The notes beneath the pieces were generated by a model that saw only the letters and a list, made by a program, of their open reading frames with translations, ran no database searches and was not told the origin of the DNA. A stretch of DNA of 21,382 nucleotides from Sandaracinaceae bacterium. GTDB lineage: Bacteria > Myxococcota_A > Polyangia > Polyangiales > Sandaracinaceae. The stretch covers positions 1-21,382 of the forward strand of contig JBGAQA010000106.1 in the NCBI GenBank assembly GCA_044220955.1, written 5' to 3'. Made by a program: the position numbers and the translations under genes. How positions within the stretch are numbered: the stretch's first letter is position 1; each line of letters begins with the position of its first letter. This document shows, piece by piece, positions 2-20,036 of the stretch.

Positions 2-373
2 GGCGCGACCAAGCCCGCGCTCGGCGCGGTCCTCTCTCACGCCGTCCCGCGGCTGGTCACCCCCGAGCGCGTCGTCCTCTCGTTCGCGAAGGGCTCGTTC
101 TACGCCAAGCAGGCCGACACCGACGCTGCTCGCGGCGCCGTCGCCGACGTGGCCGAGCGCCGCCTCGGCGCGCGGCCGGCCATCGAGATCGTCGAGACGG
201 ACGTCGCCCCCGACGCCGCCACGCCCACGCTCGCCAAGATCGAGGACGAGCGCGCACGCGCGCGGCTCGAGGCCACCAAGCGCAAGGCGCTGAACCACCC
301 CGTCGTGGTCGAGGCGCTCGCGGTGTTCGAGGCCAAGGGCCGCACGATCGACGTCCGCGTGGACGAGAGCTGA
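2..373 (+). CDS. dnaX: DNA polymerase III subunit gamma/tau, C-terminal part (5'-truncated by window edge)
   Basis: The frame is open from base 2 (GATKPALGAVLSHAVPRLVTPERVVLSFAKGSFYAKQ...) to TGA at 371-373 and ends KALNHPVVVEALAVFEAK, which resembles tau C-termini. It lies directly upstream of ybaB-recR, the conserved dnaX-ybaB-recR order. The ATPase domain is not visible. Confidence 0.8.
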   Translation, partial: GATKPALGAVLSHAVPRLVTPERVVLSFAKGSFYAKQADTDAARGAVADVAERRLGARPAIEIVETDVAPDAATPTLAKIEDERARARLEATKRKALNHPVVVEALAVFEAKGRTIDVRVDES

Positions 374-414
374 TCGGAACGGTATACGACGCGCCTTCCG
401 GAGGACCGACCCCG

Positions 415-741
415 ATGACGAACCACTTCCGCGGCGGGATGAGCGAGCTCATGCGCCAGGCGAGCCGCCTGCAGCGCAAGATCGAGAAGCGCAAGGAAGA
501 GCTCAAGACGGCCACGGTCGAGGCGACCTCGGGCAACGACCAGGTGAAGGTCGTCGTCAACGGCGCGCGCGACCTCGTGAGCATCACCATCGCCCCCGAG
601 CTGCTCAAGTCCGAGGACCTCTCGATGGTCCAGGACCTCATCGTCACCGCGGTGAACGCCGGCGCGAAGAAGAGCGCCGAGATGGTGGACGCCGAGCTCG
701 AGAAGGTCACCGGCGGCCTGAAGATCCCTGGTTTGTTCTGA
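415..741 (+). CDS. ybaB: YbaB/EbfC family nucleoid-associated protein
   Basis: 108 aa with MSELMRQASRLQ...VEATSGNDQVKVVVNG...DLIVTAVN...VTGGLKIPGLF. GGAGG lies upstream and the gene sits between dnaX and recR. Confidence 0.95.
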   Translation: MTNHFRGGMSELMRQASRLQRKIEKRKEELKTATVEATSGNDQVKVVVNGARDLVSITIAPELLKSEDLSMVQDLIVTAVNAGAKKSAEMVDAELEKVTGGLKIPGLF

Positions 742-743
742 GC

Positions 744-749
744 TAGTCT
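744..749 (+). promoter_or_regulatory. Putative -10 element (TAGTCT) for a leaderless recR transcript
   Basis: A TAnnnT hexamer lies 7 nt before the recR GTG at 757, and the 15-nt gap has no Shine-Dalgarno. Confidence 0.5.
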
Positions 750-756
750 CGCGCGC

Positions 757-1347
757 GTGGAGGACCCCATCGCGCAGCTCGTGGCGCTGCTCGCTCGCCT
801 GCCGGGCGTCGGCGAGCGGACCGCGACGCGCTACGTGCACCACCTCCTGGCCGAGGACGCGAGCCTCGCCGCGTCGCTCGGCGAGGCGCTCGGGACGCTG
901 CACGCGCGCGTGCATCGCTGCGTCGAGTGCGGGAACTGGGGGCCCGGCGAGCGCTGCGCCATCTGCGTGGACACGCGCCGCGATCCGAGCGTGCTCTGCG
1001 TCGTCGCGCGCGTGCCCGACCTCGCGGCCATCGAGCGCGGCGGGGTGTTCCGCGGCCGCTACCACGTGCTCCACGCGCTGCTCGCGCCCCTCGACGGCAT
1101 GGGCCCCGAGCGCATCGACGTCGCGCGCCTCGCCGAGCGCGTGGCCCAGGGCGGAGTCCGCGAGGTGATCGTCGCGACCCCGCTCTCGGTCGAGGGCGAG
1201 GCCACGGCGCTCTACGTGAGCCAGTCGCTCGATCACGCCAGCGTGCGCGTGACCCGCATCGCGAGCGGCATCCCACACGGCGGCGAGCTCGAGTACGCCG
1301 ACCCCATCACGCTCGGACGCGCGCTCGACGGGCGGCGGAGCGTATGA
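757..1347 (+). CDS. recR: Recombination mediator RecR
   Basis: HhH motif LPGVGERTATR, zinc finger CVECGN...CAIC, Toprim motif VIVATPLSVEGEATA, and C-terminal RIASGIPHGGELEYADPITLGRALDGR. Confidence 0.97.
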   Translation: MEDPIAQLVALLARLPGVGERTATRYVHHLLAEDASLAASLGEALGTLHARVHRCVECGNWGPGERCAICVDTRRDPSVLCVVARVPDLAAIERGGVFRGRYHVLHALLAPLDGMGPERIDVARLAERVAQGGVREVIVATPLSVEGEATALYVSQSLDHASVRVTRIASGIPHGGELEYADPITLGRALDGRRSV

Positions 1348-3149
1348 CCGGCCTGGCCGCCCGCGGACGAGCGATCGCCGCCGAGACCTGGCTCGCCGCG
1401 CTCGTCGTGCTCGTCGTCTTGATGATGGTCCTGCCGCTGCCGACGCCGCTGCTGGATCTCTTGCTCGTCTCGAACCTCGCCGTCTCGCTCCTCTTGCTGC
1501 TCTCCGCGATCTCGGCGCGCTCGCCGCTCGCGCTCTCGGCCTTGCCGACGCTCTTGCTCGTGACGACGCTCTTCCGGCTCGCGCTGAACGTCAGCTCGAC
1601 GCGCCTGATCCTGCTCCAGGCCGACGCGGGCCGCGTCATCGACGCGTTCGGCGCCTTCGTCGTGCGCGGCAACTACGCCGTCGGCGCGATCGTGTTCCTC
1701 GTGCTCACGATCGTGCAGTACGTCGTGATCGCGCGCGGCAGCGAGCGCGTCGCCGAGGTCGCGGCGCGCTTCGCGCTCGACGCGCTGCCCGGAAGGCAGA
1801 TGGCCATCGACGCCGAGCTGCGGGCCGGCGCCCTCACGGCCGAGGAGGCGCGCCGCCGCCGCAGCGACCTCTCTCGTGAGAGCAGCCTGTACGGCGCGCT
1901 CGATGGCGCGATGAAGTTCGTGAAGGGCGACGCCATCGCCGGGATCGTGATCCTCGTGGTGAACCTCGTGGGTGGCGTCGCGATCGGCGTCGGCCTCCAC
2001 GACCTCGAGGTGGGCCAGAGCCTGCGCACGTACGGCCTGCTCACGATCGGCGACGGGCTCGTGACCCAGATCCCCTCGCTCCTCGTCTCCACCGCCGCGG
2101 GGGTCGTCGTCACCCGTGTCGCGTCGGCCGAGGTGGACGGCTCGCTCGGCGCCGACATCGCGGCGCAGATGCTCGGGTCGTGGCGGACGCTCGGCCTCGC
2201 GGCGTCGGCGCTCGTCGCGCTCGCGATCGTGCCCGGGATGCCCACGCTCCCGTTCGTCGCGCTCGCGGCGGTGCTCGGCGGGCTCGCGTACGTCGCGCAT
2301 CGCGGCGCACCGCGCGATCGGGGAGCCGCGCCGATCGTGGTCGAGATCGGTGCCGAGCTCGCTCCGAGGCCCACGCACGACGTGCTCGTCGCCAGGGCCG
2401 TGACGGCAGCCGAGACGGAGCTGGGCGTGATGCTCCCCCGCGTTCGCGGCGCTCCGGCGACGGAGCCGCGCGTGGTCCGTGTGCGGATCGACGGCCTCGC
2501 GAGCGCGGAGCGAACGCCCGACCCGGGCGCCGACGCGGCGGCCGCGCTCACGTCGGCGCTCGTCGCCGCCGTCCGGCGCGACGTCCGGCTCGCGATCGGC
2601 CCCGACGAGGTCGGCGCGATGCTCGATGGCCTGGCGGCCGAGCGTCCGGCGCTGGTGCGACAGAGCGTGCCCCGCCCGCTGACCCTGGGGGCGCTCACGG
2701 ACGTCGTCCGCGCGCTCGTGGCGGAGGGCATTGCACCCCGGCCCTTCGGCACGGTGGTGGAGGCGGCCGCTCGGTCGACCGACGCGCTGCAGCGCGTCGA
2801 GCAGGTGCGGGGCGCGCTGAGCCGCGCCATCACCGCCCAGCTCGCGCCCACCGGGTCGCTCGACGTGATCGAGCTCGACGGGATGCTCGAGGACGCCATC
2901 CGCGACGGCCTCACCCGCGCGAGCGGCACCGTCCACCTCGCCCTCGCGCCGGCGCTGGCGCGCGATGCCATCCGCGCGCTGCGCCAGGCGACCGAGGCGA
3001 GCCCGAAGGGCGTGCTCCTCGTGGCCGGCGACCTCCGCCCACACGTGCGCACGCTGGTGGCGGCCGAGCTGCCCGATCTGCGCGTGCTCTGCGCCCGCGA
3101 GCTGGACGCCCGGACCGAGCTGCGGACCGTCGCCCGGGCGGCGGTGTGA
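1344..3149 (+). CDS. FHIPEP family type III export gate protein (FlhA/SctV-like), 601 aa
   Basis: Motifs LPTLLLVTTLFRLALNVSSTRLILL, ERVAEVAARFALDALPGRQMAIDAEL, LYGALDGAMKFVKGDAIAG, LTIGDGLVTQIPSLLVSTAAGVVVTRV and IVPGMP. ATG 1344 overlaps the recR stop (ATGA). The 927 start in the ORF track is a shadow extension. I cannot decide flagellar versus non-flagellar by eye. Confidence 0.93.
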   Translation: MTGLAARGRAIAAETWLAALVVLVVLMMVLPLPTPLLDLLLVSNLAVSLLLLLSAISARSPLALSALPTLLLVTTLFRLALNVSSTRLILLQADAGRVIDAFGAFVVRGNYAVGAIVFLVLTIVQYVVIARGSERVAEVAARFALDALPGRQMAIDAELRAGALTAEEARRRRSDLSRESSLYGALDGAMKFVKGDAIAGIVILVVNLVGGVAIGVGLHDLEVGQSLRTYGLLTIGDGLVTQIPSLLVSTAAGVVVTRVASAEVDGSLGADIAAQMLGSWRTLGLAASALVALAIVPGMPTLPFVALAAVLGGLAYVAHRGAPRDRGAAPIVVEIGAELAPRPTHDVLVARAVTAAETELGVMLPRVRGAPATEPRVVRVRIDGLASAERTPDPGADAAAALTSALVAAVRRDVRLAIGPDEVGAMLDGLAAERPALVRQSVPRPLTLGALTDVVRALVAEGIAPRPFGTVVEAAARSTDALQRVEQVRGALSRAITAQLAPTGSLDVIELDGMLEDAIRDGLTRASGTVHLALAPALARDAIRALRQATEASPKGVLLVAGDLRPHVRTLVAAELPDLRVLCARELDARTELRTVARAAV

Positions 3150-3288
3150 ACCGTGCGTCGGCTCCTTCGGGGGGTGGGTGTGAACGCGCCATCACGCGGC
3201 CCGAGCACGCGACGTCCGTCCGGGGGGTGTCGGCCGCGATCCTGCGTAGATCCGGGGAAACCGCCGCTAGTTTCCCGAATCCAATGGG

Positions 3289-3304
3289 TGGCACTACGAT
3301 TGCT
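3289..3304 (+). promoter_or_regulatory. Sigma54 (RpoN) -24/-12 promoter
   Basis: TGGCAC-TACGA-TTGCT is an exact match to TGGCAC-N5-TTGCW. It is intergenic and ends 36 nt before the ATG at 3341. Confidence 0.88.
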
Positions 3305-3340
3305 CGAAGGCGAGCGGGCCTCCAAGAGGGGGGTTTGAAT

Positions 3341-4228
3341 ATGAACAACCGCATTCTCAGCTCCGTGTCGTTCCTGATCGCCGTGGCTGCCCTCGGAGCG
3401 CCCTCGCTGGCGTTCGCGCAGGTGGACACGCGCTGCCGTCCCGACGACCTGCTCTGCGCCGACGCGCAGATCGGTCCGATCGAGGGTCACATCCGGATCG
3501 GGCCAGGCGACGCGCCGCCGCCGGTCGTCGTGGAGACGCCGCCGCCGCCGCCCGTGGTCGTGACCGTGCCGCCGCCGGTGGCGACGCCGCCGACGGTGAT
3601 CGTGCAGGCGCCGCCGCCGCCCCCGCAGCAGGTGGTCGTCGTCGCGCCGCCGCCGCCGCGTGAGCCTCCGGTGGTCGCCGTGCAGACCGTGCGTCAGCGC
3701 CGCGTCGTGTACGACCTCGTGCCGACGTTCGACATGGGCCTGCACCTGAGCGGCAGTGCGATCTTCTCGGATCGGATCGGGATGGGCGGCATCAACGCGG
3801 CGCTCCGCATCCGGCCCGAGGCGCACATCGGCATCGATGTCGGCACCGGCTTCTGGTACGGAAACGACTACAACGGCGCCGAGCACTGGGAGATGCCGCT
3901 CCAGGCCGACCTCCTCGTGTTCTTCAACCCGGAGCACATGTTCCAGGTGTACGGCGTCATCGGCGGCGGCGTGAGCTTCGGCCACGCGACGGGGGGCATC
4001 GGCCGCATGGACCGCGACCTCACGTACGCCGGGGGCGAGGCGGGTCTCGGCGCGGAGCTCCGGCTGGCGCGCTTCTTCGCCATCAACCTCGACGTGCGCG
4101 GGTTCGTCCGCCAGCAGGTCGGCGGCGGCGCGCCCGAGTTCACCAACCTGGCGACCGGACAGACCACCGACACCAGCGGCGGCTTCTACGGCACCCTCGG
4201 CATGACGTTCTACTTCTTCGGTCGCTGA
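3341..4228 (+). CDS. Exported protein with Pro/Val-rich linker and C-terminal outer-membrane beta-barrel (about 8 strands), 295 aa
   Basis: Sec signal MNNRILSSVSFLIAVAALGAPSLAFA|Q, then repeated PPPPPVVV tracts, then alternating Gly/aromatic strands (MGLHLSG, IGIDVGTGF, QVYGVIGGGVSFG, YAGGEAGLGAELRL, FAINLDVRGF), ending FYGTLGMTFYFFGR like a BAM beta-signal. A purine-rich RBS precedes the ATG. Confidence 0.8.
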   Translation: MNNRILSSVSFLIAVAALGAPSLAFAQVDTRCRPDDLLCADAQIGPIEGHIRIGPGDAPPPVVVETPPPPPVVVTVPPPVATPPTVIVQAPPPPPQQVVVVAPPPPREPPVVAVQTVRQRRVVYDLVPTFDMGLHLSGSAIFSDRIGMGGINAALRIRPEAHIGIDVGTGFWYGNDYNGAEHWEMPLQADLLVFFNPEHMFQVYGVIGGGVSFGHATGGIGRMDRDLTYAGGEAGLGAELRLARFFAINLDVRGFVRQQVGGGAPEFTNLATGQTTDTSGGFYGTLGMTFYFFGR

Positions 4229-4285
4229 GCATCGGCGGGCCCTGAGCGGGCGCAGCCCGCGGACCAAGGCCACGCCCAGTCGTCG

Positions 4286-4322
4286 ACGGCCCGAGCAGCG
4301 ATGCTCGGGCCGTTTCGCGTTC
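4286..4322 (+). terminator. Intrinsic terminator-like hairpin between convergent genes
   Basis: Perfect 12-bp stem ACGGCCCGAGCA/TGCTCGGGCCGT with a GCGA tetraloop, followed by a weak T-tract (TTCGCGTTC). Confidence 0.7.
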
Positions 4323-4343
4323 TGGCTCGGGGTCGCGCGGAGG

Positions 4344-5180
4344 TCAGGGCTTGCGCTGCAGGAGCTTGCCGAGGAACCCCTTCGGAGGCGCCTCGGAGGG
4401 ACGTGTCGGGGGCGGCGGCGGCGCGGTGCGCGGGGGCGGCGGCGGCGCGGTCTTGGGCCTGGGCTGGGCCTCCGCCGCCGGGGACTCTTCCTCGAGCTCG
4501 ATCATCTCGTCGAGATCCAGCTCGACGTCGCTCATGGCGACCGCGTCGTCCTCGTCGGACATCGCAGGGGCAGGCCGCGAGTAGCGCTCGGCATCCTCCG
4601 CCGTGAACATGGTGGTCGGCTCGGGCTCGATCTCCGGCGCGAGGGGGACGGCGCCCTCGTCACGCATCGGGTCGGACTCACCGAGGAGCGACGCGAGGTC
4701 CGCCGAAGGGTCGTCGGCACCGGTGTCGAGCAACGCCCGCGTCTCGGTCGCCGGTCCGAGGTCGGGCGGCACCACCGCCGCGAACGGCGTGCTCGCGGTC
4801 GTCGAGAGCGGCGCGAGCTCGGCGGGCTCTTCGAGCGGCGTCTCGCCCGAGTCGAGGTCCAGCGAGAGCGGCGGCGCCGGATCCGAGGGCGGCAGCGCGA
4901 GGACCGCCGGGAGCTCGGAGCTCGCGAGCACGTCGTCCGGGACGTCGATCTGGCCGGACGGCGGGGCGTCGTCGGCCGCGGGCGCCTGCGCGACGGGCGG
5001 CTCGGTGTCGATGCTCGCGGGCACGGACCGAGGCGCCGTCCCCGAGCCGAGCTCGGCGAGCTCCCGATCGATCTCGGACAGGGCGCGCCTCGCGCGCGCG
5101 GCATGCTGCACGGCGGCGAGGCGGGCCGGATCGACGGCGATCTTGTCGAGATCGCGATCGATCTCGGTGAGCGAGGGCAT
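4344..5180 (-). CDS. Hypothetical acidic, Pro-rich, probably disordered protein (278 aa) with C-terminal amphipathic helix
   Basis: This is the protein-like 3' part of the 4344..6911 ORF, starting MPSLTEIDRDLDKIAVD (ATG 5180) and ending KGFLGKLLQRKP. It fills the gap between the terminator and the divergent psuG. Confidence 0.75.
   Translation of the reverse strand: MPSLTEIDRDLDKIAVDPARLAAVQHAARARRALSEIDRELAELGSGTAPRSVPASIDTEPPVAQAPAADDAPPSGQIDVPDDVLASSELPAVLALPPSDPAPPLSLDLDSGETPLEEPAELAPLSTTASTPFAAVVPPDLGPATETRALLDTGADDPSADLASLLGESDPMRDEGAVPLAPEIEPEPTTMFTAEDAERYSRPAPAMSDEDDAVAMSDVELDLDEMIELEEESPAAEAQPRPKTAPPPPPRTAPPPPPTRPSEAPPKGFLGKLLQRKP
4407..4451. repeat. In-frame 24-bp-period tandem duplication encoding TAPPPPP twice
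   Basis: CGGGGGCGGCGGCGGCGCGGT occurs at 4407-4427 and again at 4431-4451. Confidence 0.8.
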
Positions 5181-11142: not shown

Positions 11143-12171
11143 GTGAGCCTCCCCGACCTGCCCTTCGTCGTGCCTCTCTCCGAGCCCATCTCCGGCACCG
11201 TGAAGGACCGGCCGGAGGACTTCGTGGTCGAGGAGATCCCAGCGTATCTCCCGAGCGGCGAGGGCGAGCACCTGTTCGTCCGCTTCGAGAAGACCGGGCT
11301 CGACACCGAGCCCGCCGTCCGCAGGATCGCGGCGGCGCTCGGCGTGCGCGAGCCGCCGGGCTTCGCCGGGCTCAAGGATCGGCACGCGCGAACCACGCAG
11401 TGGGCGAGCTTCCAGCGCGGCGAGCGCGACGCGGCGCTGGCGCTCTCGCTCGACGGCATCCGTGTCCTCGAGGCTGCGCGCCACGGCAACAAGCTGCGGA
11501 CCGGGCACCTGCGCGGCAATCGCTTCGTGCTGCGCCTGCGCGGCGCCGATCGCGCACGCGAGGCGGACGCGCGCGCCGTGATCGAGACGCTGGGCCGCGA
11601 GGGTGTCCCGGCGTACTTCGGACCGCAGCGCTTCGGCCGCGACGGCGCGACGCTCGCGCGCGCGAGGGCGTGGATCGTGGGCGACGCGCGGCCCCCTCGC
11701 GCGCCCTTCGAACGGAAGCTCCACGTGTCGGCCGTCCAGTCGGCGATCTTCAACGAGCTCCTCGCGGAGCGGGTGCGGACGGGCGGCCTCGGGTCGATCG
11801 TGGCCGGGGATCTCTGCCGCAAGGACGACACCGGCGGCATGTTCGTCGCCACCGACCTCGAGGACGCGCGCGCGCGCGCCGCGCGCTTCGAGATCAGCGC
11901 GACCGGGCCCATGTTCGGCGCCGAGATGCGCTGGCCGGAGGGGGAGGCGCGGGTCGCCGAGGAAGCCGCGCTCGCGCGCGCAGGGCTCGACGTCACCAAG
12001 CTCGAGCGCTTCCGCCGCGCAGGCGAGGGAACGCGGCGCCCCTACCGCTTCCGGCTCACCGAGGCGAGCGTGTCGAGCGACGCGGACGGAATCGTGCTCT
12101 CGTTCGTGCTACCGGCCGGCGCCTACGCGACCGTGGTGCTCCGAGAGCTGACCCGCGAGCTCAGCGCATGA
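11143..12171 (+). CDS. truD: tRNA pseudouridine(13) synthase TruD, 342 aa
   Basis: Motifs PEDFVVEEI, GEGEHL, FAGLKDRHARTTQW (catalytic Asp), GHLRGNRF, YFGPQRFG, SAVQSAIFN and FVLPAGAYATVVLREL. GTG start at 11143 lies in the distal part of the 8575..12171 ORF. Confidence 0.96.
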   Translation: MSLPDLPFVVPLSEPISGTVKDRPEDFVVEEIPAYLPSGEGEHLFVRFEKTGLDTEPAVRRIAAALGVREPPGFAGLKDRHARTTQWASFQRGERDAALALSLDGIRVLEAARHGNKLRTGHLRGNRFVLRLRGADRAREADARAVIETLGREGVPAYFGPQRFGRDGATLARARAWIVGDARPPRAPFERKLHVSAVQSAIFNELLAERVRTGGLGSIVAGDLCRKDDTGGMFVATDLEDARARAARFEISATGPMFGAEMRWPEGEARVAEEAALARAGLDVTKLERFRRAGEGTRRPYRFRLTEASVSSDADGIVLSFVLPAGAYATVVLRELTRELSA

Positions 12172-13396
12172 CGAAGAAGTAGTACGCCGCCGCCGAGCCG
12201 AGCGCCCCGAGCACGAAGAGCACCAAGGCGCCCACGAGGATCATCGGCAGCGCCGAGCGGCGCGGGACCGCGACCGGCTCCGTGACGACCGGGACGGTCC
12301 CGAGCATCGGCGGCGCGGGCGGCGGGTGATCCGCCGGGGCTCCGAACGGGGCCGCGGCGGCGGGCGTACTGGTGGCGAGCGCGGCCTCGATCTCGGCGAC
12401 GGAACGCTTGCCCCACCCCTCCACCGACGCTCGGTCCGCGCTCGCCGCGAGCCCGAAGGCCGAGAGGGCGGCAGCGGCGAGCTCGAGCGTCGATCCGAAG
12501 CGGCGCTTCTTGTCCTTGGCGACGCCCTTCTCGACCAGGTCGTCGAGCGCGGGGGGCAGGCCGGGCTTGGCCTGACTCAGCGGCTCCGGCATCGCGTTGA
12601 CGATCTTCATCAAGATCTCGGCGACCTGACTGCCGGAGAAGGCGACCTTGCCGGAGAGCATCTCGTACAAGATGGCCGTGAGCGCGAAGCCGTCGGTCCG
12701 GTTGTCGACGTCCGCCTTCCCCATCGCCTGCTCGGGCGACATGTAGTACGGCGATCCCAGCGTCGTGCCGAAGGCCGTCAGCTTCGGTCCCGTCTCCATC
12801 TGGAGCTTCACGGACCCGAAGTCGAGGATGCGGATCTGATCGCCCGCGGGCGTGTCGACGAGAAAGACGTTGTCGGGCTTCAGGTCACGGTGGATCACGC
12901 CGAACGAGTGGGCGTCGTCGAGGCCGAGCGCGATCTGCGCGAGGATGCGCAGCGCGCGCGCCGGCGGGACGATGCCGTCGCGGCGGAGCAGCGCACCGAG
13001 CTCGAGCCCCTGCAGGTACTCCATCGTGAGGAAGTACGAGTGGTCGGGCGTCTCGCCGAAGTCGATCACGCGCACCACGTACGGGGAGTCGATGCCCTGG
13101 GCGGTCTCGAACTCCCGCTTGAAGCGCTCGACGGCGACCTTGTCCTTCGCGACGTCCGGGTGGAGCACCTTGATGGCCACCCGCTGCTTGGACTGGGCGT
13201 GCCGGCCCTCGTAGACGCGACCCATGGCCCCGTCGGCGACGTGAGCCGCGACGACGTAGTCCCCGAAGCGCTGGCCGAGCCGCGGGTCGGCGAGCTGCCC
13301 CGGCGGCGGCACCTGGATCACGATGTTTCCGTCGTTTCCGCAGAACGAGGTGTCGTCGGGGTACTCGGTCCCACACTGCGGGCAGCGTCGGCTCAC
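12161..13396 (-). CDS. Hanks-type Ser/Thr protein kinase with N-terminal zinc-ribbon-like motif and C-terminal membrane anchor
   Basis: CPQCG...CGNDG at the N-terminus, kinase motifs VAIK, RFKREF, HRDLKPDN, ILDFG and GSPYYMSPEQ, then a Pro-rich linker and hydrophobic MILVGALVLFVLGALGSAAAYYFFV at the very end. Confidence 0.95.
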   Translation of the reverse strand: MSRRCPQCGTEYPDDTSFCGNDGNIVIQVPPPGQLADPRLGQRFGDYVVAAHVADGAMGRVYEGRHAQSKQRVAIKVLHPDVAKDKVAVERFKREFETAQGIDSPYVVRVIDFGETPDHSYFLTMEYLQGLELGALLRRDGIVPPARALRILAQIALGLDDAHSFGVIHRDLKPDNVFLVDTPAGDQIRILDFGSVKLQMETGPKLTAFGTTLGSPYYMSPEQAMGKADVDNRTDGFALTAILYEMLSGKVAFSGSQVAEILMKIVNAMPEPLSQAKPGLPPALDDLVEKGVAKDKKRRFGSTLELAAAALSAFGLAASADRASVEGWGKRSVAEIEAALATSTPAAAAPFGAPADHPPPAPPMLGTVPVVTEPVAVPRRSALPMILVGALVLFVLGALGSAAAYYFFVMR

Positions 13397-13447
13397 GGGG
13401 GCGATGCTACTCGACGCCCGCCGCCCGCGCGAAGAGAACGGCAGCGC

Positions 13448-16231: not shown

Positions 16232-18160
16232 CTACGAGAGCCCGAAGCCCTTGAGCTTCTTGTGCAGGCCCTCGCGCGTGATCCCGAGCGTGCGCGCGGT
16301 CTGGCTCTTGTTGTTGCCGTGGTCCTTGAGCGCCTCGATCAGGATCCACTTCTCGACCTGCTCCATCATCTCGCGGAGCGTGCCCTTGGTCGGGTGGACG
16401 CGATCGAGGATGTTCTCGACCTGCCGGATCTTCGGGCTCAGGTGCTCGGGCTGGACGAACGCCTGGTCGTCGATCTGGATCACGAGGCGCTGCACCTCGT
16501 TCTCGAGCTCGCGCACGTTGCCCGGCCACTTGTAGCTGCGGAGCATCTCCATCGACTGCTGCGAGAACCCGCCGACCGCGCGGCCGAACTCCTGCGAGTA
16601 CTTCTTGAGGAAGTGCGCGGCGAGCAGCGGGACGTCCTCACTGCGCTCGCGCAGCGCCGGCACGCGGATCGGGAACACCTTCAGGCGATAGAAGAGATCC
16701 TCGCGGAAGCGGCCCTCCGCCACCTCCTTCTCGAGGTCGCGGTTGGTGGCGGCGACGATGCGCGTGTCGACGCGGATGGTCTTGGCGCCGCCGACCGGCC
16801 GCACCTCGCCCTCCTGGAGGGCACGCAGGAGCTTCGCCTGCAGCGAGAGCGGCATCTCGCCGACCTCGTCGAGGAAGAGCGTGCCGCCGTCGGCCAGCTC
16901 GAAGAGGCCCTTCTTGTCCTCCGTCGCCCCGGTGAAGCTGCCCTTCTTGTGCCCGAAGAGCTCGCTCTCGAGCAGGTTCTCCGGCATCGCCGCGCAGTTC
17001 TGCGCGACGAAGAGCTTCTCCCGGCGCTCCGACCAGTAGTGCACGGCGCTCGCGATGAGCTCCTTGCCCGTCCCGGTCTCGCCCTCGATGAGCACGGTGA
17101 CGCGCGTGTTCACGACCTTGCGCAGCTGGTCGAAGAGCCGCTTCATGGTCGGCGCGTCGCCGATGATCGCCCCCTCGCGCCGGCTCTGCTCGCGACGCTT
17201 CAGGTAGACGTTCTCCTTGCGCTGGTTCTCCTCGGCGACGCGCAGTCGCGCGTAGAGCCGCGCGTGCGAGAGCGCCGCGCTCGCGGACTGCGCCAGCAGC
17301 GCGAGCACGTCGAGGTCGCGATCCCGGAACACGCCCGAGCCCTCGCGGTTGTCCACCTGGAGCACGCCGTTGATCTCGTCGCCTTGCCAGAGCGGGACGC
17401 CGATCGTGCTCGTGATCTGCGCGGCCATCATCGAGGCGCTCTCGCCGACGTCGCGCCGCGCGTCCGCAGCGAGCACCGCCGCGCGCTCGGCGACCACCTT
17501 CTTGAACACGCTGCGCGTGATCGGGACCGCGTCCCGCCCTGCCCCGCCGCGCACGCGCGTCCCGACCGGCACGTAGCGCGCGGCCCGCCTGGGCCCGTCC
17601 TCGTCCTCGCGCAGCGCGATGGTGACGTGCGTCGCGCGAGACAGGAAGCGGAACACCTCCTGCGCGATCTGGTCGACGAGCGTCTCGAGCTCGAGCGTCC
17701 CCGACAGGTTCTTCTGCGCCTCGTAGAGCGCCCGCAGCACCGTCTGGTCCGAGCCGAGGTCCGCCTCGAGCCGGTCGATCTCCGCCACGCGGCGCACCGA
17801 CACGATGCGCGCGTCGTCCTCCTCGTCCTCGAGCCGCACCAGGACGTGCACCGCGCGGTCCGTGTCTCCGAGCGTCAGCACGTCGCCCGACTCGAGGGCG
17901 ACCTCGCGGTTCTCGGCCGCTCCGACGTCGATCACGGTCTTGCCGCCGTCGCCGCGGCGGATGCGCGTCCCGTTCGTCGCCTGCAGGTCGCGCACGACGT
18001 AGCGGTCGCCGACGAAGAGCACGATCGCGTGCTCCTGCGACACGTGCCACTCGGACACGACGAAGTCGTTGACCTCGCCGCGCCCGATCTTCACGAGGTC
18101 CGAGCGCGACTCGAGGACGCGTCCCTTGTCCTGACCTTCGACGACCTCGAGACGGATCAT
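16232..18160 (-). CDS. Sigma54 enhancer-binding protein, FHA-GAF-AAA+-Fis HTH
   Basis: FHA (IGRG, VSQEHA, TNGT), GAF ([30 protein letters not shown]), AAA+ ([47 protein letters not shown]) and HTH ([20 protein letters not shown]). Confidence 0.96.
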
Positions 18161-18227
18161 GCCGACGGGAGGCGCCGAAGGCGCGATTCTCGCGAGTCGA
18201 GAGGGGCGAGCTGGATGCTCATGCGGG

Positions 18228-20036
18228 TCAATGCGCGGCCGAGCGCGCGGCGAGGCGCGCCTGCACGGCCAGGAAGAGCGACTCGGTGTGCGACCAGACC
18301 GAGCGGCCCTGCTCTTGCTGGTGCAGCTCGTCGATGCGCGCCACGGCGGTGGCGCTGCCCGACGACGCCACGAAGTCGAGCGCGTACAGGACCTCGCCGC
18401 GGATCTCCTCGCTCGCGTTGCCCAGCTGCCCGACGAGGGCCGTGATCGCGGCCTCGTTCCCGCGGCCGTAGCGCGCGAGCATGTAGCAGGCCTTGCGCAC
18501 GACCCACGAGTCGTGGTCGGTGAGCTTGCCGGCCCAGCACGTCACGTCGGTGTTGCACTCGCGCGTGGCCGCCATGACGGGCCGGGCGGCGTCGGCGGAG
18601 CTGCCCGCGTCGAGGTCGCCCGTGACCTCGAGGAAGCCGTCGCGCGCGTCGCTGTCCTGCGGCTCGGCCGAGAGGATGGCCTCCAGGTTCGCGATCTCGG
18701 CCGCGTTCGCCATCAGCAGGTACGCACGGAACGCGAGGATGCGGCGCGCGGTGCTGTCCGGATCAGGCGCCTGCCCGCGCGGCAGCGGCTGCGCCGTCTG
18801 CAGCAGGAACGGGAGCGCACCCGGGTCGTTGAAGTGCTGTAGCGCGACGAGCAGCTGCTGGCGGCTGCCGTGGCCGGGACGCGAGATCGGGTTGAGGCGA
18901 TTGTACGCCGCGATGAGGGCCTCGCGGATGCGCTGGCTGTCGGCCTCGTCGCGGTTGATCGACACGAGCGCGAGCGCGCCGCTCATCATGTGACCCTCGA
19001 CGGCCGAGTTCTCCTCGATGGCCCCCGGGCGCTCGCCCGGGGCCGTGCGGGCCGTCTCGGCGATGAGCGGATCGATCGCCTCGCGGAACCCGAGCTGTCC
19101 GAGGGCCGTCGCCGCCTCGCCGGCCACGATCGAGTCGACGGACATCTGCGCGGCGGCGTCCGCGTCGCGCTGGCGCACGGCCGCGATGTACTGCGTGGCG
19201 ATCTGGTTGGCCTCCGTGTTGCTGCCGGCGAGCGTGTCCAGGAGCGGCTGCAGCGCCGGGCGGCCGATGCGCACGAGGCCCATCGACGCCATGTCGTTCA
19301 TCCGGAGCGCCGGGTTGTTCGGCCCGAACAGGTAGAGGGCCTGGATCAACGCCGGCACGGTGGTCGGATCGGCGATGCGCCCGAGCTGCTCGCACGCGAG
19401 GCGGTTGATGAGGAAGTCCTGGTTCTCGGACTGCAGGAGCATCGTCCGCGAGACTGCGGCCGAGCCGCGCGGATCACCGAGGGTGCCCAGGGTGCGCAGG
19501 AACTCGATGCGCATCCGGTTGTCGACCCCGCGGGCCGTGCGGACCGCCGCGAGCGCGTGATCGAGCGCCGTGATCACCTGGCCCTTCTGGGCGTCGTCGA
19601 GCGTGAGCGTCGCGAGCGTGCGCGCCGCGCCGATGGCGGGCTCCTCGGACACCTCGGAGCGCCAGTCGAGCGCCGCGATCAGCGCGGGGAGCGAGCGGAC
19701 GTCCCGCATCTCGCCGAGCAGCGAGACGATCGCCGCGCGCCCCGTGATGTCCTCCGAGTGGTCCAGGTAGCACTGCGTCAGCTGCTGGACGCTCACGTCG
19801 GCGATGTGCGAAGGCTCGGCGGCCGTCCGGTCGCCGTCGGCGTGCGCGAGGGCCGTGGTGTACATGCGCGAGAGGTTCGCGATCGCGTTCGCGCGCCGCA
19901 CCGCGTCGCCCAGCTCGCCCGCCTGTCCCGCCGGGTCGTTCTCGTCGGCGTGGCAGCCGAGGGCAGCGAGCATCGCCAGGGCGGCCAGCGTGCGAATGAG
20001 GAGGGTCCAGCGTCCCGTCGTCGTGTGCGTGCGCAT
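18228..20036 (-). CDS. HEAT-repeat (alpha-solenoid) lipoprotein, 602 aa
   Basis: ATG 20036 has GGAG upstream. Lipobox LAALG|C. Repeated HEAT-like units: LGEMRDVRSLPALIAAL, LGTLGDPRG, LGRIADPTTVPALIQAL, LGQLGFREAIDPLI, LTDHDSWVVRKACYML. Confidence 0.85.
   Translation of the reverse strand: MRTHTTTGRWTLLIRTLAALAMLAALGCHADENDPAGQAGELGDAVRRANAIANLSRMYTTALAHADGDRTAAEPSHIADVSVQQLTQCYLDHSEDITGRAAIVSLLGEMRDVRSLPALIAALDWRSEVSEEPAIGAARTLATLTLDDAQKGQVITALDHALAAVRTARGVDNRMRIEFLRTLGTLGDPRGSAAVSRTMLLQSENQDFLINRLACEQLGRIADPTTVPALIQALYLFGPNNPALRMNDMASMGLVRIGRPALQPLLDTLAGSNTEANQIATQYIAAVRQRDADAAAQMSVDSIVAGEAATALGQLGFREAIDPLIAETARTAPGERPGAIEENSAVEGHMMSGALALVSINRDEADSQRIREALIAAYNRLNPISRPGHGSRQQLLVALQHFNDPGALPFLLQTAQPLPRGQAPDPDSTARRILAFRAYLLMANAAEIANLEAILSAEPQDSDARDGFLEVTGDLDAGSSADAARPVMAATRECNTDVTCWAGKLTDHDSWVVRKACYMLARYGRGNEAAITALVGQLGNASEEIRGEVLYALDFVASSGSATAVARIDELHQQEQGRSVWSHTESLFLAVQARLAARSAAH

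Follow-up and report, generated by a model that had tools for sequence, protein, structure and literature searches.

What becomes of a type III export gate when it loses the part of its cytoplasmic domain that helps to dock and order substrates? Current models of the choice and ranking of chaperone-bound substrates in flagella and injectisomes centre on subdomain 2 (SD2) of the SctV/FlhA gates and on the cleft that it forms with subdomain 4 (SD4). The question is raised by a 21,382-base stretch of DNA (hereinafter the window), which is the whole of contig C7 of a Sandaracinaceae genome (G000; 7.5 Mb in 301 contigs, 88% complete, approximately 74% G+C). Its gene sctV, an open reading frame of 601 codons at 1344-3149 on the forward strand, encodes a member of the SctV/FlhA family from which SD2 has been cleanly lost in frame, together with two thirds of the linker that joins the membrane domain to the cytoplasmic domain. 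Below, we present the evidence for this loss, its recurrence among orthologues, the state of the secretion system to which the gene belongs and a proposal under which the product is likely to be a working but simplified gate.

An export gate that has lost SD2

The sctV product scores 555.6 bits with the Pfam FHIPEP profile (PF00771; E 2.2e-166), whose gathering threshold is 29.1 bits, and misses the NCBIfam equivalog cut-offs of both SctV (TIGR01399; 548.2 vs. 692.25 bits) and FlhA (TIGR01398; 487.8 vs. 772.1 bits), with SctV ranking above FlhA. The query matches each NCBIfam profile in two separate stretches, since it has nothing that corresponds to the middle part. Likewise, the FHIPEP match is divided between positions 1-298 and 449-655 of the 657 in the profile, with about 150 profile positions facing about 71 residues of the query. 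A profile search of the contigs found it to be the single FHIPEP gene of its genome, again matched in two pieces. The nearest named database proteins come from Sandaracinus and Sandaracinaceae, and the eight nearest overall have 588-603 residues and 69-80% identity to the query. A contig scan recovered no relative above 49% identity over most of the query, the higher values being those of N-terminal segments only; the close relatives considered below were obtained by whole-genome search.

An initial annotation of the window had described a 601-residue gate with a conserved membrane core, a very short linker and a clean deletion of SD2, and each of these elements held up. The membrane domain (residues 1-318; 1344-2297) aligns to YscV 18-327 and FlhA 26-327, and carries all the motifs that had been quoted: FRLALN at residue 77, PGRQM at 149 (PGKQM in most relatives), QMAID at 152 and KGDA at 194. 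Further, the counterparts of seven charged residues of Escherichia coli FlhA (R94, R147, R154, D158, K203, D208 and D249) are identical in the query and all 20 aligned sequences. The residual linker (residues 319-329; 2298-2330) retains about a third of the canonical length, with 11 residues as against 34 in E. coli. It leads into the first part of SD1 (residues 330-391; 2331-2516), which ends in VRVRIDGLASAERT (residues 378-391; 2475-2516). The deletion junction follows as the loop PDPGA (residues 392-396; 2517-2531), at the site where canonical proteins insert an SD2 of about 46-50 residues. Directly after it, DAAAALTSALVAAVRR (residues 397-412; 2532-2579) opens the second part of SD1 (residues 397-417; 2532-2594), the helix that succeeds SD2 in canonical proteins. 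The ring-forming SD3 (residues 418-493; 2595-2822) starts with IGPDEVGAMLD (residues 418-428; 2595-2627) and aligns to FlhA from residue 504, and SD4 (residues 494-601; 2823-3146) places its 108 residues in the columns of E. coli FlhA 584-692.

The alignment leaves the query without a counterpart for residues 437-482, 341-361 and 376-381 of E. coli K-12 FlhA. We take the domain map of the E. coli and Salmonella proteins to be linker 328-361, D1 362-434 and 484-503, D2 435-483, D3 504-583 and D4 584-692; by this map, the first gap corresponds to D2, i.e., SD2, and the second to the distal linker. Counted by subdomain, with the E. coli values in brackets, the query holds 11 (34) residues in the linker, 65 (73) in the first part of SD1, 7 (49) in SD2, 16 (20) in the second part of SD1, 76 (80) in SD3 and 108 (109) in SD4, the SD2 figure varying between three and seven with the alignment used. 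The SctV of enteropathogenic E. coli (EPEC) is described as carrying SD2 at 416-463, inserted in SD1 (bioRxiv 10.1101/2020.11.20.391094). The query also has no counterparts of the FlhA linker residues E351, W354 and D356, which are the objects of FlhA crystal-structure variants according to the titles of the structure entries, nor of D456 and F459.

An AlphaFold2 model of residues 320-601 reached a mean predicted local distance difference test (pLDDT) score of 95.1 and a predicted template-modeling (pTM) score of 0.90. In model numbering, the first part of SD1 has a beta-alpha-beta-beta-beta arrangement (strand 12-16, helix 23-41, strands 48-52, 59-63 and 66-71), from which a seven-residue loop (72-78) passes to the helix 79-93, aligned with E. 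coli FlhA 484-503; nothing corresponding to SD2 lies between them. In Foldseek and VIA-align comparisons, the model matched every solved cytoplasmic domain of FlhA or SctV (Z 19.5-26.4); 257-281 residues were aligned, and the chain segments that they cover are approximately 325-350 residues long. Thus, the monomer prediction and superposition that had been suggested as a check bore out the deletion: the model superposes on MxiA (4a5p_A) at Z 26.4 with a root-mean-square deviation (rmsd) of 2.2 over 269 aligned residues, and on Salmonella FlhA (3a5i_A) at Z 23.1 with an rmsd of 3.8 over 273 residues aligned within chain 352-691. Judging by the model, the folds of SD1, SD3 and SD4 are retained.

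A 2981-base contig from run X2, part of a separate activated-sludge metagenome study, spans 1200-3400 of the window with nine letter differences and no gap; hence, the deletion is not an assembly artefact. X2 alone bridges the junction, the contigs of runs X3 and X7 not doing so with 31 letters on each side. The proposition that SD2 is still there in an unrecognisably diverged form, or that its absence is an assembly error, was accordingly rejected and has next to no probability in our estimate: it is countered by the SD1 link of five to seven residues modeled at pLDDT 95, by the gap-free X2 contig and by the occurrence of the same deletion in three other species.

Recurrent loss of SD2 among orthologues

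In an alignment of 120 rows (the query, E. coli FlhA and 118 database homologues), the occupancy of the SD2 columns is bimodal, with 0-17 residues in 47 rows and 47-56 residues in the remaining 73. Within the genus of the query, genomes G002, G004 and G005 share the deletion with G000. The same-genus genome G001 has a 47-residue insert exactly at the deletion point, and in P0012, the database protein matching G001, this insert folds as a small beta-alpha-beta subdomain with pLDDT 87-96. The presence of a folded SD2 in a member of the same genus implies that the loss occurred inside the genus. In a wider circle of relatives, recR adjoins sctV in 28 of 110 loci examined, the query's own included (one of the 28 is the fragment L122 of genome G026, on which no result rests). 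Among the 27 of these recR-linked orthologues that cover the region, 20 lack SD2, six keep it and one is intermediate; the SD2-less genes are all intact frames and are spread across several families of the order. Hence, the deletion is not the one-off decay of a single allele, as the initial annotation had allowed that it might be. Complete SctVs with another sct gene in the flank examined hold 46-52 residues in the SD2 columns in 40 of 41 cases, the last holding 32.

These states were then placed on phylogenies. The FastTree phylogeny of all 120 rows, built after the SD2 and linker columns had been taken out, requires 10 changes of SD2 state, at least five of which are forced by well-supported branches, and the IQ-TREE phylogeny of 56 rows requires four. 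A tree joining all 29 SD2-less rows was rejected by the approximately unbiased (AU) test (delta lnL 219.7, p 8e-142). A single origin of the SD2-less forms is thereby rejected, and SD2 was lost more than once among the orthologues. The query itself falls in a well-supported clade of orphan SctVs (95% support in IQ-TREE), and the trees built here point to its injectisome/myxobacterial descent. The suggestion that the deletion might define a clade therefore stands in part: three same-genus species do share it, but the loss is recurrent, occurs also in chlamydial FlhA and is not the marker of a single clade.

Signs of selection and predicted self-association

Selection was gauged by pairwise Nei-Gojobori dN/dS, the absolute values of which are inflated by saturated G+C content at third codon positions; it is the differences among regions within a gene that are informative. 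In comparisons within the genus, dN/dS is 0.07-0.31 for the membrane domain, 0.09-0.33 for SD3 and 0.12-0.69 for SD4; these three regions are under purifying selection. Genus g7 has recR-linked orthologues that retain SD2, and there this subdomain evolves faster than any other part of the gene (0.41-0.78 vs. 0.03-0.15 for SD3).

A prediction with three copies of the cytoplasmic domain scored 0.56, the best of three controls scoring 0.00; of proteins solved as same-chain pairs, 20 of 30 attain this mark, and of those solved as single chains, one of 23. The trimer runs had at least 61% of their contacts in common, with a partner pLDDT of at least 86. The predicted homo-oligomer interface lies on SD3 and SD1, and comprises residues 433-440 and 467-473 in SD3 and 494-498 at the beginning of SD4 by our boundaries. 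This score may reflect the model's memory of the solved FlhA/SctV rings, and so likeness rather than binding.

A dispersed type III core

Family profiles detected no further secretion gene beside sctV within the window. Instead, the genome carries the other core components as single-copy genes elsewhere: sctR on contig C240, sctS-sctT on C33, sctU on C32, sctJ on C265, sctN on C44, sctQ on C266 and sctL on C4. Together with sctV, nine core genes are thus spread over eight contigs, mostly singly and among unrelated or housekeeping genes, with none adjoining sctV. SctN, at 530 bits, lies above its cut-off. A scattered layout is also seen in the closed, one-contig genome G007, with sctV at 5.80, sctU at 1.96, sctR at 7.98 and sctJ at 5.48 Mb (0.3-3.8 Mb apart); the dispersal is therefore not an effect of assembly. 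We also noted that the SctR frame (L006:8673-10655, on C240) has its FliP/SctR domain at residues 453-656 of 661 codons; the gene may start further downstream or may encode an N-terminal extension.

A second, clustered type III system is present in G002 and G004, with an FHIPEP frame of at least 681 residues, in which the two pieces of the match lie as far apart as they do in full-length proteins. The G004 cluster (C63:2772-19389) has sctJ, sctR, sctU and sctV on one contig, and that of G002 (C77:4815-7681) was seen only as adjacent sctU and sctV. Genome searches did not find a second FHIPEP gene or a clustered system in G000, G001 or G005. The flagellar rod domain PF00460 was not found in the query's genome, the controls being matched in four genomes. 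The needle family PF09392 likewise gave no match there, but its control matched none of 14 control genomes and the result is hence uninformative.

The autocleavage of SctU/FlhB at its NPTH motif underlies substrate switching, and the fate of this motif offers a comparison with that of SD2. The SctU of the query's genome reads GEDE where E. coli FlhB has NPTH. Among 29 aligned SctUs, nine lack the motif (five from the query's genus, three from genus g3 and that of G008) and 20 keep NPTH or NPTR; eight of the nine motif-less proteins come from genomes with an SD2-less SctV. We paired the two states by hand in the 16 genomes where both are clear: both are lost in eight and both kept in six, with one genome (G048) lacking SD2 and keeping NPTH, and one (G001) keeping SD2 and lacking NPTH. 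The last combination indicates that the loss of NPTH in SctU probably preceded that of SD2 in this lineage. As a separate observation, the SctUs of the cluster-type systems of Archangium/Myxococcaceae (L053:4342-5495, L058:1591-2635 and L060:3714-4786) read NPDH instead of NPTH, and each is followed by a second short open reading frame resembling only the SctU C-terminal domain.

At the locus itself, the order is ybaB, recR, sctV, a gene for an outer-membrane barrel-like protein, a gene without assigned function, psuG and unrelated genes. The nucleoid-associated protein gene ybaB (415-741, forward strand; Pfam YbaB_DNA_bd, E 1.5e-25) is the first of a conserved ybaB-recR-sctV block and stands upstream of recR-sctV in relatives too. 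The product of recR (757-1347, forward strand) matches Pfam RecR HhH, zinc finger, Toprim_4 and RecR_C, and its stop codon TGA (1345-1347) overlaps the ATG of sctV (1344-1346), the two genes sharing four bases. A promoter and terminator scan of 300-4500 found neither, and an Rfam scan of the whole contig gave no match. The sctU gene (C32:28-1122) lies immediately upstream of priA, an adjacency seen in all four same-genus loci and 13 others, i.e., 17 of the 28 relative loci with an SctU match (locus L154 shows priA only). Two genes of the export core are thus tied to genes of DNA replication restart and recombination, sctU to priA and sctV to recR, across the order.

Downstream of sctV, the gene at 3341-4228 (forward strand) encodes a protein of 295 residues that has a signal peptide, a barrel-like C-terminus and, at 3509-3592, a tandem repeat rich in proline. 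Its matches to Pfam OMP_b-brl (E 0.0065) and NCBIfam OMP_myx_plus (E 0.0072) are both sub-threshold, and a comparison with the sequences of solved structures gave no match at E <= 1. A homologue stands directly downstream of sctV in many relatives, including the SD2-keeping loci L020, L021 and L119. It is a candidate outer-membrane partner of the secretion system, in which no secretin was identified, though no search was aimed at one. Further along, the reverse strand encodes a 278-residue protein (4344-5180) that matches no family and whose C-terminus is basic and rich in proline; its residues 189-278 recur with 57% identity at the same place in the same-genus G004 (L100). A Ser/Thr kinase (12164-13447) and a sigma-54 enhancer-binding protein with FHA and GAF domains (16235-18541), both on the reverse strand, are typical myxobacterial regulators; the FHA domain of the latter shows a sub-threshold resemblance to the YscD cytoplasmic-domain family.

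A proposed simplified gate and its alternatives

We propose that the SD2-less SctV is likely to be a working but simplified gate of a dispersed type III core, which would export without chaperone docking or substrate ordering. In EPEC SctV, SD3 alone nonamerises the protomer, and SD2 is outward-facing, non-conserved and a major chaperone-binding site (bioRxiv 10.1101/2020.11.20.391094); chaperones are further reported to bind in the SD2-SD4 cleft (PMC7584215). Briefly, the mechanism would be as follows. The query protein would form an SD3-mediated ring beneath SctRSTU and couple the flow of protons to export. The removal of SD2 would leave the ring and pore intact and abolish the docking cleft, with neither the SD2-SD4 cleft nor the SD1/SD2 surface remaining for the chaperone-substrate complexes of flagella and injectisomes; hence, substrates would be taken without chaperone-based ranking, as might befit a machine in which the staged assembly of a rod, needle or filament has ceased. 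With ordering no longer needed, SD2 would drift and be repeatedly deleted, with the NPTH motif of SctU going first in this lineage. The oligomerisation, the conduction of ions and the loss of chaperone recognition are predictions of this proposal and not results.

The initial annotation had likewise seen a minimal gate that might suit a needle-less or filament-less system. The retained membrane charged residues, the predicted packing of the trimer through SD3, the lack of a detected flagellar rod and the loss of NPTH are in keeping with this view, but the needle-less cluster-type myxobacterial systems L053, L058 and L060 keep SD2. The general rule that any needle-less system drops SD2 was thus rejected.

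Several observations weigh against our proposal. SD2 persists not only in L053, L058 and L060 but also in the recR-linked orthologues of genus g7. The association between the losses of SD2 and NPTH has its exceptions in G048 and G001, and draws on about two independent losses of NPTH at most. The SD2-less group submitted to the AU test was named only after the tree had been inspected. Within the genus, dN/dS is near neutral in SD1 (0.35-0.96) and after the last membrane helix (0.66-1.9), which could mean that the cytoplasmic domain has begun to decay. The sole RNA contig matched, from a wastewater metatranscriptome (run X19), lies on recR (1205-1337) and not on sctV; its 167 bases, exact to the 3' end of recR and with adapter-like ends, say nothing of sctV transcription. 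Finally, with the genome 88% complete, a needle or a secretin partner could have escaped detection, and so could a second clustered system like those of G002 and G004.

Other accounts were weighed as well. One is that an intact complex has been repurposed as a non-exporting membrane platform for ion conduction or scaffolding, akin to the nanotube and 'hat-like' proposals, in which the docking parts are unnecessary. Such a change of use would explain why both substrate-handling devices, SD2 and NPTH, are lost while the membrane charged cluster is retained, and PMC9380563 describes further structures of the inner membrane that are related to the type III proteins of flagella. It is nevertheless unlikely given the retention of the ATPase SctN, SctL and SctQ, which serve substrate delivery, and the purifying selection on SD3 and SD4, the pore-lining and stalk-binding subdomains. 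The near-neutral dN/dS of SD1 and of the linker region after the membrane domain would agree, in turn, with sctV being a relic on its way to a pseudogene, in which the dispersed genes would be what remains of a secretion system now gone, and the SD2 deletion a step of decay; so would the loss of NPTH, the scattering of the genes among housekeeping genes and the scores under the NCBIfam equivalog cut-offs. However, we consider this decidedly improbable in light of the 20 intact SD2-less orthologues in several families, the dN/dS of the membrane domain and SD3, the conserved charged residues and the high-confidence fold, along with the retention of all nine core genes and of the recR and priA linkages.

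SD2 might also be supplied in trans, by a full-length SctV paralogue in mixed rings or by a free-standing SD2-like protein. While the clustered systems of G002 and G004 could furnish such a paralogue, only one FHIPEP gene was found in each of G000, G001 and G005, and a tblastn search of the query's own genome, at its 88% completeness, with the SD2 segments of four proteins gave a best E of 0.28, leaving this account very little likelihood.

Returning to the simplified working gate, we tentatively extend it to a more general picture, which we regard as possible though not the probable outcome: an ancient, genome-dispersed type III core of the Polyangia type, set among housekeeping genes with sctV overlapping recR and sctU adjoining priA, may have repeatedly shed SD2 and NPTH to become a minimal machine without chaperones or substrate switching, to which the chlamydial FlhA would be an independent parallel. 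If true, SD2 would be an accessory of the staged assembly of filaments and needles rather than a part of the export mechanism itself. The repeated natural deletion of SD2 in conserved, selected genes shows that a gate of this kind can be retained in its absence. The requirements of a minimal type III export apparatus thus become testable in non-pathogenic, culturable relatives, for which ready comparisons exist both within the genus (G001, which keeps SD2, against G000, G002, G004 and G005, which lost it) and within the family (genus g7, which keeps SD2 and NPTH, against genera g1 and g3, which lost both).

Comparison with known systems

Against the canonical SctV/FlhA gates (FlhA of Salmonella and E. 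coli, YscV, InvA, MxiA, EscV, SsaV and CdsV), the query shares the membrane domain with its charged residues, the folds of SD1, SD3 and SD4, and a predicted SD3-mediated self-association. It differs in departing from their four-subdomain cytoplasmic domain, in which SD2 is inserted in SD1: it is without SD2 and the distal linker, is about 90 residues shorter and is encoded outside any secretion gene cluster.

Closer to home, the 'Myxo' non-flagellar type III secretion system (T3SS) of Cystobacterineae (Abby and Rocha 2012) and the T3SS* of Myxococcus xanthus are reported to be without secretin, needle and translocon (PMC3459982; PMC12075869). They resemble the system of the query's genome in having a myxobacterial type III core, the latter with no flagellar rod found. 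However, they form compact clusters (mxan_2434-2464; a conserved short or long locus in the 'Myxo' case), unlike the dispersed partner genes of the query, and their SctVs (L053, L058 and L060) each keep 51 SD2 residues and belong to a different clade. The splitting of injectisome core genes over several loci has been noted for Chlamydiales and Hamiltonella (PMC3459982). There, three or four multi-gene loci are involved, in contrast to nine core genes on eight contigs, mostly single, in the query's genome; further, the pairing of sctV with recR and that of sctU with priA are conserved across the order. A literature search, which excluded most subscription journals and supplements, found no description of a natural SD2-less SctV/FlhA or of a dispersed system of the Sandaracinus type, with its one-gene-per-locus layout and its recR and priA linkage, nor did we find a paper stating that chlamydial FlhA lacks SD2.

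The closest architectural parallel is the orphan FlhA of chlamydiae (NF004571/PRK05910; Cpn0363 of Chlamydia pneumoniae, 583 residues), which has the same reduced architecture as the query. In all six PRK05910 members examined, there are no SD2 residues and the linker has 19-22 residues. Of 60 chlamydial genomes scored, 21 hold a protein that passes the NF004571 cut-off, and the FHIPEP genes of the environmental chlamydial genome G061 are all full-length. PMC2830194 gives the C. pneumoniae protein 583 residues, with a cytoplasmic part at 308-583, and presents it as an orphan in an organism without a flagellum, much as the query gate is an orphan. The query (residues 19-588) is collinear in one stretch with positions 13-566 of the 584 of NF004571, but falls far below the cut-off of that family (235.3 vs. 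670 bits). Moreover, in Chlamydia the flagellar set is reduced to FliI, FlhA and FliF, alongside a full, separate injectisome, whereas the query's genome keeps the whole core set. Given the injectisome/myxobacterial descent of the query to which our trees point, its loss of SD2 is convergent with that of the chlamydial FlhA, the two having arrived at the same reduced gate along separate lines.

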